From Perna viridis (taxonomy: Eukaryota): 64,000 nucleotides of DNA. Under the pieces are notes generated by a model that was not told the origin of the DNA, ran no database searches, and saw only the letters and a program-made list of their open reading frames with translations. The DNA lies in assembly GCA_037379345.1 (NCBI GenBank), contig CM074521.1, positions 20,546,704-20,610,703 on the forward strand. Reading direction: 5' to 3'. Positions 11,169 to 64,000 of this stretch are shown here, one piece after another. Position numbers and translations under genes: made by a program. Each line of letters starts with the position of its first letter. The first letter of the stretch is position 1.

Positions 11169-12334
11169 GGCCTCCGCATCGAGCTCAATTTCAACCTCCA
11201 CTCCCACAACAGCCTATAAGGTCCCCAACACATTCAAATTCTCAACAACAGCCTTTTAGACCACCACAAGGAATGCAAAGACCACCAATACCACCAAACA
11301 TGGTTGCCCAGCCACCTAGACGAAGAGCCCAACAAGTTGGCTCTAATAATGGTCAACAGATGATTCCACAAGCCTCTCAAATAAACACACCTAAACAATT
11401 CCCTGTTCAAGGTGTGCCTCCCCTGCAACGACCCGCGCCTCAATATTCTCAACCTATTCCACGATCACAACCATATACTGCCCTTCAAAAGAGCCAAGTA
11501 CAAATTAATCAGGTTCAGCCGCAACAATCTATGCCACAACCAGTTCAGCAACAAGTACTTCCTCAGCAGCAAGCACTGCAAACACCTCAACAACCGGTGC
11601 AAAAACAACTTCATCCTCAACCACCGGATCAACCACAACAACCACATCAACAACCGATGAATTATCAACTTCAGCCTCAACCACCTGTTCAACAACAACA
11701 ACCACCTCAACAACTGATGCAACAGCAACTTCAGCCTCAACTACAGATTCAACCACAACTCCAACCACAACAACCAGTACCTCCACAACAATCTCCTAAT
11801 CAACCGATGCAACAACAGCAACCACTTGATCAACAACAATCCGGTGTTGCATTACAACGACAAGCAGCATCATCAGCACAAAGTCCTGTTGTGGCATCTC
11901 AACCAGTACCACAAGCTTATTCACCAAGTGGTCAATACCAACAACAATTTTCTTTCCAACCTCAACCATATCAACCGGTCCATGCTCAGCAATCCGCCTA
12001 TCCCCAACCACAAAATCAACCGTACCAGGCACCAGCACATCAACAACCTCCTGTATATCAGCCTCCACAGTATCAATCTCCAACCCAGCAATCGACCCCG
12101 AAGACAACACCAAGGCCAACAACTCCAAAACCAACAACAACGACAACACCTAAACCACCTCCGCAGACTGAAGCTCCTGAGTATGAGGGGGTAGAGATTG
12201 AAGGTCCAACTCATGCCCCACCGCCGCGATATCACTCCGGTTCACATTACCAACAACCTTACTATCCCCCAACACAATCACCTGTTCAGGATTTCTTCAT
12301 GTTTTATCCAGTTTTTGATGCATTTTTCACATAA
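11169..12334 (+). CDS. Terminal coding exon: Pro/Gln-rich protein with Thr-rich stalk, TEAPEYEG motif and aromatic C-terminus (probable alternative 3' exon of gene A)
   Basis: Strong acceptor ttttttttaatttcAG ends at 11168. Frame is open from 11171 (PPHRAQFQPPLPQQP...) into the 353-aa ORF. No signal peptide of its own; phase 1 matches the donor CAAG|GTAATA at 7092/7093. AATAAA at 12382-12387. Confidence 0.85.
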
Positions 12335-12389
12335 ATGCCAAAACTAAACCGTCTGATGCCACGATCTATCATTTCGTGAAAAATAAACC

Positions 12390-12390
<1 letters not shown>

Positions 12391-12421
<31 letters not shown>
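12391..12421 (+). repeat. Genomic poly(A) run (31 nt)
   Basis: Directly visible. Confidence 0.95.
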
Positions 12422-12423
<2 letters not shown>

Positions 12424-60300: not shown

Positions 60301-60749
60301 CCTTGCATTTTTATATATTCATGTATATATTTATTGTCCGAAATCAGAAGTGCAGTTTTTGCTTGCGCTGTACAAAATGTATGTAGCACTGTCAAGTTTA
60401 CTCATTTTCGGGCCCTTTTGTACTGATGCACTTGCTTTATTTGCTTGAAATTGTGAATTAGCACGTATAAGTCGTTGATTCGATAACCGGTCCCGCCAGA
60501 CCAAAGGCGCTAATATTAATATATTGTCATTGCTTCTCCGCCAAAAAACGCGACATAAAAGAGATTGATTGGCGACTTGTTGGCTCTGAGCCACGACAAT
60601 GAGTCTGAGTATGTCGCTTCTAAGAGCTAGCACAAAAAAATCGGCACAGTCTGTTGGACAGATACAAAGGAGGGTCTGTTCGATTGATCAAGTGTTTTCG
60701 TTCAGAGAGAGAGAGAGAGAGAGATTTGACACTTTATACATTGACACAC

Positions 60750-61078
60750 GATTGATTGATTAGGGTTTAACGATCTCCGGTAGAAATTTCACGCATCTCA
60801 GGATAAGTACAATTGAACAGACCCTGCTTTGTACTAGTACGACACGCTGAGCTGGATTCTTATTGTGCTAGGTCACATAAGCAACAGCTCACAGGTAGGC
60901 ATATCACCCAACTCGGACACATTATTCTGACTCCTATCCAACCAGCCTTCACTCTATCCCTTAAATACCACGTGCTTGATGGAGAAGTATAAAGTCTTAG
61001 GTATGACTCGGCCGGGGATCTAACTCATGACCTTCTACAGTCGGGGCGAGCATGTTACCTTCAGACCACCGAGGCGGT
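60750..61078 (-). mobile_element. tRNA-derived SINE (resembles bivalve Meta-domain SINEs)
   Basis: Minus-strand head ACCGCCTCGGTGGTCTGAAGG (A-box-like) and GAGTTAGATCCC (B-box-like). Core GTCAGAATAATGTGTCCGAGT...CTAGCAC...CTAGTACAAAGC. Tail CGTTAAACCCTAATCAATCAATC. Family name is from recall. Confidence 0.8.
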
Positions 61079-63666
61079 CAATTTAGATAAGAAATATGGA
61101 AGAAATTGAACTATTTGTATGACCTTATTACCTTACGTGTCCTTGCTGACATGTTTTACACATTTACCAATCATGTCTGCCATTAACATGTGCATTGTAA
61201 TTGACAGCTCATAGATCGGTAATTGACTCTTACTTGTCCAGGTGTAAAGTGACAGGTAACAGGTCAGGGACAGGTCTTTTATTTGGAAATTGGTTATGAT
61301 TATCGGCTTATTCGTCTTGAATATGTGGCAGATGTGTGCAAATAGTCCCTTTAAGTGCATGATGCACGTGTACATTTAAAGTCATAAGTTTTTTGGTTGA
61401 AATCCTGCCATAGATGTTTAACCATCATAATACTTCCGCAATTCGGCGTCTATCTTTAAAATAGCTCTAAACTGCTTAAGAAAGTGGGTAAATTGTTAAA
61501 AGATGTAGTTGTTACAAGTAACAGGAACAACGCATTAAGTACATGTAAACAAATTTTAATTTTGGACTATTGTACCTTGTAAAATATGTATGAAATAGCT
61601 GAAAGAAGTAGAACATAAGTTCTTGATTAAAAGGCTTTAAAAATAATTTCCTCTCGTTTTTATTTCATCTCAAATGGCCTTCAAGAGAGTGATACTCATG
61701 CATTAAATGCTTAAATGCTTAAATGTTTTTTTTTCATACATTGTATATATTGACCCTTCGCATACAGACAGCATAACTTTCAAATTAAGTTTTAAAAATT
61801 CTTTATGATCATGTACATTATATAATGTTTATGTCCGTGGTCAGGTATAAGGATTGACAATGAAATATATATGTAAGACAAGGTCATAATGACATGCTGT
61901 TTTTCATATTTTAAGATTATATTTTGTGACAACAGTAAAATGTGATAATTAATGTGAGACGTAGGTACAGAGTAGGTTATATATCTGGACCTTTCCGTTG
62001 ACCTTTATACACATAAATTGTTTGGGAAGGGCAAACGTGTGTTTATGTCTTTTTTCGAAATTCATATTGACGCTTATGGTACAGGAACACAAACCGTTCA
62101 TTCCTTTGTTCCAAAAAATGTTTTTGATCACTGACTACATAAATTGCAGATCATTATCTACCAATCGTTGGGTGAATAGATATATTTCAAATGAAGTTGG
62201 TACTTTTGAGTTCGACTGTTTCATTAGTTTTTTTCAGTGGCATGCTTATTTAAACGCAATTTTCCGAAAAGAACAACTTAGTGTATAATCCAATTGACAG
62301 TTTTCCGTAAATATGAGTTTAAGGATGCCATAAATACATCAAATCTTTCTTATTCTTAGTTTTTTGTTTGACTTTTAACATATTCATGCATTCAATTTAT
62401 TAAAGACTAAAATTACATTATATTGTCAAAGTACAAAACCTTATATTAAGAAAATAGCATTTTTGCAAAAGTTAATTAAAGGGAAATTTTCAATGACAGA
62501 TGTAATGTATTTTTAGAAAATAAAACAGTCATAAATGTCGGAATCGTATGTTACACAAAAACTGCAATTAAATACGCTTTTCCAGGGTGATTTTATTATA
62601 GTTTTAATTAAATGTATGGAGTGTATCAAGTATAGGCATACCTAAGAGTCATGCAGAAGATTATACTGTTGGTAGTGCAAATGTATCTTGTATGTCCCTT
62701 TAGTGAGATAAAACCAATCCCAAAAAATAAAGAGGAGAACAATCAAACCTTATGGCGTGAACTAATTAAGTAATATTTTTAATTTTTGAATAGGTTATAA
62801 CGGAATTTGCATGTAAGTCAATGTAAAGTGTAAACTGCCGTAAACAAGGTTACTTTGTATAATCTATAAAATTAGAAAATTATATAATTTAACTTCTAAT
62901 GTATGATAGACCAAAGATTAAGAATTGATTCGTAATAAAAATATTTATTTGTGATGAACTTAATCGCGGAGTGCGGACTAATTGACGTTAATGACGTCAT
63001 ACTACTAAACCATGTTACATAAAAATAACATGGTTTGCTCGCAGAAAACCAACCAATTAGAAGGCTTGTTTAAATTAAAATTAAAATTAATTTTCGATGG
63101 AATTGAATTTAACTTATTGACTTGTTTCATTACATCTCACACTTTAAATGCAACTCCTTTTTTTCACAATGTTTTTCTTCTTATAATTAATGATAATTTT
63201 TTTTGAAGATTTTATGGTGTTAAGGAAGTTGACAATAGCTGTAGTCTTTTCCTCATTTGCATTGTTCTTAAGTAAACCTGTACTTAATTGGATTGATATG
63301 TCGATACAGTAAGGATGTGATATACATAGAACAAAATGTTGGTTTTATTTTGTGTCAAAAGTATATTTGTAGCTATTGGAAGAAATAAATGTTAATACCA
63401 CGCGTGGGTCCAAGGTCGGGCGTGCCGGACGTATGCCCCTCCCTCGAATTGAAAAAAAGAAAGATTTTGTATGCATAAAATCTTGAAAAAAACATATACA
63501 CGTGTAAAAATCAAAAACGAATAATGAAAGGAAGAGAACCGTGGTGGAGTTTTTATGTGAAAAAAGAAGGATCCTTTTAATACATTGGCATGATAAAAAT
63601 AAGGCTTTCTCTTGCATACGAGAACGATTATTTATTAAGTTATTTTATTTTGTCTTCCAGGTAGTA

Positions 63667-64000
63667 ATGATGAACTGTATTGTAATAATGACAGTGATTC
63701 TGTCGATATTGAGTCCCAGCCTGACAAACCATCTTAGACCGCCCTACTACAGAGGCGGGTACCCATATCAATACCAATACCAATACCAACCTCCCCTTCA
63801 AAGAGCCACACAAAAACCGAAAACAACAACGACTACCACAACGGCTGCCACAACAGTTGGTGAATACGAGCCACCAGAAATGGAAGGTGTGACATCAACT
63901 ACTACGACCACACCAAAGCCAACGACGAAAAAGCCTGCTGGTCCTCATTACCCAAATTATTATGTGAATTATAACCACCAATACCCGGCATACAATTACA
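63667..64000 (+). CDS. Gene E (runs off window end): secreted Tyr/Pro/Thr-rich protein
   Basis: Acceptor ttttattttgtcttccAG ends at 63660. My translation: MMNCIVIMTVILSILSPSLTNHLRPPYYRGGYPYQYQYQYQPPLQRATQKPKTTTTTTTAATTVGEYEPPEMEGVTSTTTTTPKPTTKKPAGPHYPNYYVNYNHQYPAYNY..., with no stop in 111 codons. Confidence 0.88.
   Translation, partial: MMNCIVIMTVILSILSPSLTNHLRPPYYRGGYPYQYQYQYQPPLQRATQKPKTTTTTTTAATTVGEYEPPEMEGVTSTTTTTPKPTTKKPAGPHYPNYYVNYNHQYPAYNY

Follow-up and report, generated by a model that had tools for sequence, protein, structure and literature searches.

A short, Glu-only acidic motif, E[AP]PE.E, is shared by three dissimilar and likely secreted proteins encoded within a 64,000-nucleotide stretch of the Perna viridis genome (assembly GCA_037379345.1, contig CM074521.1, positions 20,546,704 to 20,610,703 of the forward strand; hereafter the window), and in two of them, the products of gene E and of the P/Q gene (gene A), it is very probably genuine and subject to selection. 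A six-frame search of the window found exactly three matches, one each in the P/Q gene (EAPEYE, 12170-12187, + strand), gene D (EPPEIE, 23505-23522, − strand), and gene E (EPPEME, 63868-63885, + strand), as a first-pass annotation of this DNA had reported. The matches lie within the longer segments TEAPEYEGVEIEG (12167-12205, +), YEPPEPPEPPEIEIE (23499-23543, −), and GEYEPPEMEG (63859-63888, +), respectively. The window region is a cluster of large-exon genes with low-complexity products and signal-like starts, and homologue searches found relatives of the cluster proteins in Mytilus only. All three motif proteins combine a low-complexity composition with a hydrophobic, signal-like N-terminus (Kyte-Doolittle maxima over 10 residues of 3.26, 2.63, and 3.06), as in shell matrix proteins; signal-like starts were judged throughout by Kyte-Doolittle hydropathy rather than by SignalP.

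Conservation of the motif in the window proteins

The sharing of the motif exceeds chance in shuffled sequences. The look-elsewhere set consisted of six-residue patterns, each allowing a single wildcard and a single two-letter position, that were common to at least three of the seven local proteins, and E[AP]PE.E ranked first of 66 such patterns with a log10 score of −12.0 (the next pattern scored −9.2). An equally good pattern arose in none of the 60 shuffles made under each of three schemes (whole protein, 30-residue windows, and 15-residue windows; 0/180 in total), and the literal motif appeared in three proteins in 0 of 20,000 shuffles.

The earlier proposal of a conserved short linear motif agrees with the comparison to Mytilus, in which both proteins with orthologues show their strongest conservation at the motif. 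Compared with M. trossulus P0004, the gene E protein shows 39% identity overall, with GEYEPPEMEGV as the longest exact block and the sole 11/11 window among 619; the motif is also kept in all 14 Mytilus records that cover the N-terminus (15 listed). For the P/Q exon, identity to M. edulis P0006 is 45%, and the longest invariant block spans 19 residues, closes with EAPEYEG, and exceeds the next longest by a factor of more than two. The P/Q and E proteins each carry a single motif copy and only 4-5 Glu in 500-600 residues, and all five Glu of the mature P/Q protein (517 residues) sit in TEAPEYEGVEIEG. Among the hallmarks of short linear motifs, conservation above the flanks is seen in both E and P/Q, while shortness and a disordered setting are seen in E, which is predicted to be mostly disordered (mean predicted local distance difference test (pLDDT) score of 36.7, with residues 15-183 below 50) without secondary structure around the motif, a prediction based on an alignment of only eight close sequences. 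Structure and sequence databases added little: P0004 gave a best score of 0.82 in the ESM Atlas search, which is a lead only, residues 310-391 of P0006 had no usable match there, and the PDB sequence search returned one match (E value 2).

Gene D (22335-23654, −; open reading frame and composition) encodes 439 residues with a signal-like start, an acidic N-terminal part (residues 23-95, isoelectric point (pI) 4.1), and a Lys-rich remainder (pI 10.6). Its motif copy unites YEPPE and PPE-I-E-I-E, and D is a somewhat probable member of the group of motif carriers. Separately, the short acidic head and long Lys-rich body of gene D could make it an electrostatic partner for an acidic motif.

The shared flanks described by the first-pass annotation were confirmed, with differences in order. 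TTTTTPKP is present in both the P/Q gene (12134-12157) and gene E (63898-63921), as are the His/Tyr/Pro segments HYQQPYYP (12245-12268) and HYPNYY (63946-63963), but TTTTTPKP precedes the motif in P/Q and follows it in E, and D has only two Thr. In P/Q, the Thr/Pro stalk TTTTTPKPPPQ (12134-12166, +) falls within the 19-residue block that is invariant against P0006. The register of Tyr differs as well, Tyr being the x residue in P/Q and directly preceding EPPE in E and D.

Common ancestry of the three genes, also suggested earlier, is unsupported. Were they ancient tandem paralogues, the motif would be the last relic of a common ancestor with a role specific to this cluster, and several features are consistent with this: 3 of the 99 literal matches in the genome (see below) fall within 52 kb, the genes resemble one another in layout, each with an acceptor immediately ahead of the ATG and a single large coding exon, and CAG2232433 and CAG2232436, the orthologues in M. 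edulis, carry neighbouring accession numbers and lie on equal-size contigs, which suggests conserved synteny. However, pairwise BLASTP of P/Q, D, and E found no alignable similarity (best E values 2.6, 2.8, and 2.4), protein searches of the P. viridis genome found no paralogue of any of the three, TTTTTPKP and the motif stand in opposite order, and words related to the motif turn up in three low-complexity genes located on contigs C5 and C9. Such copies on other chromosomes mean that the motif is not specific to the cluster. Tandem paralogy is thus very improbable and, even if true, would be silent on the role of the motif.

The motif across the genome

Genome-wide scans were run on the 723-Mb assembly, in which the window contig is labelled C11. 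The pattern as first written proved too loose to serve as a specific marker, with 99 matches compared to 67, 63, and 54 in controls, and it was rejected for this purpose. Ninety-one of the 96 matches outside the window were inspected (the remaining five are copies of one repeat on C13) and were non-coding, repeats, or unrelated proteins, with a Thr-rich frame carrying TEAPESE (L125) as the sole borderline case. The control scan brought to light frames on C9, rich in Met and Gly, that contain E-[YFI]-EPPE, and a second scan located [AP]PE-hydrophobic-E-hydrophobic-E in the C9 frames, in D, and in a frame on C5 (L180). On these patterns, the real unit is best described as a pair of words with Glu as the only acidic residue, E-[YFI]-EPPE and [AP]PE-hydrophobic-E, which overlap in either order, as in APEIEFEPPE (L146), EYEPPEMEG (E), YEPPE..PPEIEIE (D), and EAPEYEGVEIE (P/Q).

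With the wider definition, motif genes in the genome number six if the C9 frames are counted as a single large gene with phase-1 exons, which is what they resemble. A signal-like start was seen in four of the six genes, and the motif or related words also occur in two Pinctada proteins discussed below. In its arrangement the C5 frame L180 matches gene E, with a Thr run, the motif, a second Thr run, a Tyr-rich part, and a Gln/Pro-rich part. The C9 frames L146-L150 (G000:C9:30372000-30419999) are very large, Met/Gly/Pro-rich, phase-1 exons, probably of a single giant gene that holds six or more motif-like copies plus MMPEMGMGGKKE repeats; their composition is reminiscent of the Met-rich proteins of the hinge ligament. 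YEPPE by itself had 25 matches compared to 19 in the control, five of them in frames of at least 150 codons, and four of these five frames are low-complexity (D, E, L149, and L151). The scans and the 150-codon cut miss motif copies in short or intron-split exons.

Scans that allowed Asp in the two words gave 38 and 23 matches, all of which were inspected, with 8 and 5 in long frames. Every one of the long-frame matches in low-complexity proteins (6 and 4) was all-Glu, and the Asp-containing ones (2 and 1) were all in ordinary-complexity proteins. Three further patterns were tried and set aside: [AP]PE-x-EG (170 matches compared to 59, the excess coming from one repeat, and none of seven inspected loci relevant), E-hydrophobic-E-x-EP (127 compared to 113, with no low-complexity protein among the first 30 inspected), and T-x-[AP]PE-x-E (72 compared to 58, with P/Q and L180 the only relevant ones among 30 plus 15 inspected). 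A profile of 10 motif windows searched against 1.84 billion representatives gave no match at an E value of 0.001, because the motif is too short to reach significance there.

The recurrence of both words bears on whether the motif is a convergent structural spacer or a by-product of composition, with E and P/Q conserving their sites independently and D as a chance match. That the genome-wide counts are near those of the controls, that the three window versions have only EXPEXE in common, and that Glu makes up 7% of D, whose N-terminus is acidic and which has no orthologue, would all fit such an origin. The look-elsewhere shuffles argue against it, the local-window schemes included, as do the presence of both words in tandem in D, which has YEPPE in common with E, and the bridging of unrelated Gln-rich and Met/Gly-rich backgrounds by the same words; we consider convergence quite improbable.

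Tyr sulfation generally calls for at least three acidic residues no more than five positions away from the Tyr, and the window copies have four (P/Q), three (E), and two (D). It had been raised as a possible function, and it cannot be the shared one because other copies have Phe, Ile, Val, or Met in the Tyr place (L146, L148, L180, and the second word of D and E). More broadly, the motif might be a substrate site at which a secretory-pathway or matrix enzyme matures these proteins, whether by proteolytic cleavage, by sulfating Tyr, or by modifying Glu. The strict use of Glu, the exposed and disordered setting, and the acidic neighbours of Tyr in P/Q and E are compatible with such a site, as is the position of the motif near a terminus in P/Q (residue 484 of 537), E (residue 65 of 629), and D (residue 38 of 439), where the acidic N-terminal part lies ahead of a basic body like a pro-region. 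However, the Tyr is replaced as described above, the copies in the C9 gene and L151 are internal, and mass spectrometry identified the PEIE peptides of the Pinctada fucata protein NU-5 as plain, unmodified sequence (PMC7591529), so that an enzyme site is improbable.

Shell proteins and possible roles of the motif

Three other proteins with the motif or related words are known from nacre. The P. fucata protein pfu_aug2.0_3371.1_05817.t1 has a signal peptide and GEYEPPELEG near its N-terminus with Thr-rich flanks (PMC6231486, supplement S5 row 170), and that source lists it from nacre only, neither from prism nor from larval shell. Like gene E, it places GEYEPPE-x-EG between Thr-rich stretches, with 9 of 10 residues equal, whereas the rest is, by eye, Ser/Asn/Gly/Val-rich (in the first ~400 of 791 characters) rather than Gln/Tyr-rich. 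The rough chance of a GEYEPPELEG match in the 328,056-character file is 3e-6 to 7e-5 under assumed residue frequencies. The main text of that article mentions neither the word motif nor this gene. In P. viridis, Unigene542 was identified by one peptide from acid-insoluble nacre, without homologue or domain (PMC6641155, S4 table), and the L151 protein reads, by eye, the same. Unigene542 carries VEYEPPE, but it is Gly/Met/Gln-rich with Lys-rich flanks in place of the Thr stalks of E and P/Q. The third is P. fucata NU-5, which has PEIE repeats in a Glu-rich region and whose knockdown spoils nacre tablets (PMC7591529). Like the C9 gene, this shell matrix protein has PEIE and IEVEI words adjoining a Gly/Met/Pro region; unlike the motif genes, it has tandem PEIE/PEIK repeats without EPPE, in a segment described only as a Glu-rich region, and is otherwise not alignable as far as seen.

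Low-complexity shell proteins with short motifs have been described before. Shematrin and KRMP proteins carry short C-terminal motifs of the RKYKY type in repetitive, low-complexity sequence (PMC3896809; general remark in PMC3374290), which resemble the present motif as short fixed words on fast-evolving secreted proteins; those motifs are basic, terminal, and family-bound, whereas the present one is acidic, internal, and found across unrelated backgrounds. A synthetic peptide system is also similar in its alternating acidic and hydrophobic residues and Pro caps, and is longer, with five repeats compared to one to three in the natural motif. Acidic shell proteins of the Asp-rich class, such as Aspein, have long Asp tracts and a very low pI. 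They and the motif proteins both place acidic residues in secreted, disordered, shell-type proteins, but the latter have a Glu-only patch of 6-13 residues, and the mature pI of P/Q (10.4), E (9.5), and D (10.0) rules out membership of that class.

The explanation that we tentatively favour is that the motif may be an exposed acidic docking site that tethers otherwise basic, disordered secreted proteins into the shell organic matrix. The Thr/Pro or Gly/Ala flanks would hold the motif extended and accessible, with the adjacent Thr runs likely O-glycosylated, and the EPP triads and E-hydrophobic-E pairs would place carboxylates on one face. A shared partner protein could then read this carboxylate face, together with the Pro and aromatic residues, during matrix assembly, probably helped by Ca2+. 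The strict preference for Glu and intolerance of Asp, the exact conservation of residues with Pro, Gly, and aromatic positions fixed, the use of single copies, and the small number of carboxylates lead us to infer recognition rather than bulk charge. Docking is further supported by the motif being the longest invariant block against Mytilus in both E and P/Q, by the mostly low-complexity nature of the long frames with YEPPE, and by the nacre listings of the three other carriers. The link to shell is drawn through these other carriers rather than through the window genes themselves.

Direct binding of Ca2+ or aragonite is the main rival to docking. Here, the motif would bind the mineral or bridge its own copies through Ca2+, acting without a partner as a sticker that condenses proteins at the mineral front. 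Most known mineral binders are rich in Asp, whereas no Asp variants of the motif were found, and P/Q and E offer one copy and 4-5 Glu per large protein. All three proteomic carriers occur in nacre, as this reading would have it, and a recombinant NU-5 fragment with PEIE repeats aggregates at pH 8.0 only when Ca2+ is present (PMC7591529). However, the fragment also has many Asp in GPDMGG repeats, and with Ca2+ its helix content rises while antiparallel sheet falls. On balance, direct Ca2+ bridging seems unlikely, if clearly less so than the other alternatives.

Several observations weigh against docking and its link to shell. The aggregation of the NU-5 fragment with Ca2+ needs no partner, and the Pinctada nacre protein may be a diverged orthologue of E. 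Gene D is without an orthologue, none being found among 2596 candidates, and no signal exon was found for the Met/Gly gene on C9 or for L180. The wider definition of the motif was drawn up after the matches were seen, and four of the raw genome counts given above (99, 25, 127, and 72) lie near their controls. In tables of the adult P. viridis shell, the motif strings were absent from all four files save for Unigene542, six marker peptides of the window proteins were absent from the one file searched, and just two proteins had any of six PE-x-E/EPPE strings; therefore, the motif is not general in shell proteins. These tables cover adult shell, with larval shell, ligament, periostracum, and byssus outside their coverage, and with regard to the missing detections we infer that Gln-rich proteins yield few tryptic peptides. 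Haliotis supplements (12 of 27 files) gave no relevant match, nor did Tridacna and second Pinctada supplements, which may contain few sequences. In the published literature, with subscription journals largely outside the search, six longer motif strings and the orthologue accessions were absent, the matches listed for six other strings were unrelated, and no paper was found to name the motif. An acidic internal word across unrelated backgrounds and two bivalve orders therefore appears undescribed so far.

The surrounding gene cluster and the wider meaning of the motif

Transcript evidence came from contigs of runs X1 and X5, which look like a single data set filed twice, and from raw RNA reads of X6 and X7 (tissues coded). 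The P/Q-rich exon with the motif (11169-12334, +), supported by splicing and by the M. edulis orthologue P0006, is the last exon of the gene with its ATG at 6558, because contigs join 3684 to 6546 and 7005 to 11169. An upstream non-coding exon (3637-3684, +), whose start was inferred from an AG acceptor, is joined to 6546 by a GT..AG joint in X1 and X5 contigs and one X7 read (intervening letters undefined). The first coding exon (6546-7005, +) starts with a signal-like peptide, comprises 149 codons plus one base, and is linked to the P/Q exon by a joint seen in one contig each of X1 and X5 (7003 to 11167, cut at +2, GT..AG), giving an in-frame product of 537 residues. The X6 and X7 reads cover the gene thinly (depth ~0.5) and nearly all in one orientation. 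A 991-codon, Ser/Thr/Asn-rich frame without the motif (6558-9533, +; open reading frame) shares the first coding exon and is likely an alternative read-through isoform, with patchy and low coverage beyond 7005. Through the internal donor at 7005, one gene (6546-12334) appears to yield two very different secreted isoforms.

The Gln/Tyr-rich 5' part of gene E (63667-64000, +; open reading frame) runs past the window (L003:667-2553) to 629 residues as printed, and its motif lies between Thr runs at 63823-63843 and 63898-63912. The tails of P/Q (12290-12331) and E (L003:2440-2550) are both Phe/Met-rich and amphipathic with a DPF or DFF word before them, and are kept in Mytilus, making them a second candidate shared element.

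Among the neighbouring genes, gene C (16205-19747, +) is a 1180-codon low-complexity frame with a signal but without the motif, identified by its open reading frame, composition, and hydropathy, with no coverage in four sequencing runs; a dense Arg/Lys run at 17520-17580 (+) could make its product an electrostatic partner for the acidic motif. Approximately 6-8 kb before the window, a 635-codon Ser/Met/Leu/Gly-rich frame (L013:1163-3067) has LLPLLALSGG-like and NP-M-L repeats and is likely a further matrix protein of the cluster, without the motif or a Pfam family. No protein in either of two sets (0/9 and 0/9) passed a curated Pfam cut-off; P0004 alone scored 25 bits with PF21827 (New_glue), below the cut-off of 31. 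A tandem gene in three copies (27400-28745, 36655-38898, and 44775-46847) encodes an unannotated Cys/aromatic domain of ~250 residues, followed by a Thr-rich stalk, a C-x-C-x-C stretch, and a C-terminal membrane segment; copy 1 seems broken into several frames, and copies 2 and 3 have no Pfam family. The window also contains approximately nine tandem 60-base units open on both strands (55602-56141) and a high-copy repeat with inverted ends and very deep read and contig coverage (14844-15971), likely a small DNA transposon, directly preceded by an N stretch (14602-14786). Broken frames like reverse transcriptase, RNase H, and tyrosine recombinase (L006:2256-5165, −) presumably belong to a DIRS-like retrotransposon, judging by their appearance.

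Most matrix proteins of shells and other bivalve structures are orphans of low complexity that defy alignment from one species to another, which obscures how they recognize one another. A ten-residue word kept from mussel to pearl oyster provides a search pattern for such proteins across species, and a peptide of the motif is small enough for assays that separate partner recognition from plain Ca2+ binding. A further-reaching possibility, which is rather doubtful, is that the motif may be a portable, Glu-specific tag across bivalve orders by which dozens of unrelated, rapidly evolving disordered proteins dock on a common receptor or scaffold. If so, the tag would recruit proteins into nacre and other matrices, and an assembly code would lie hidden in the unalignable shell proteome.

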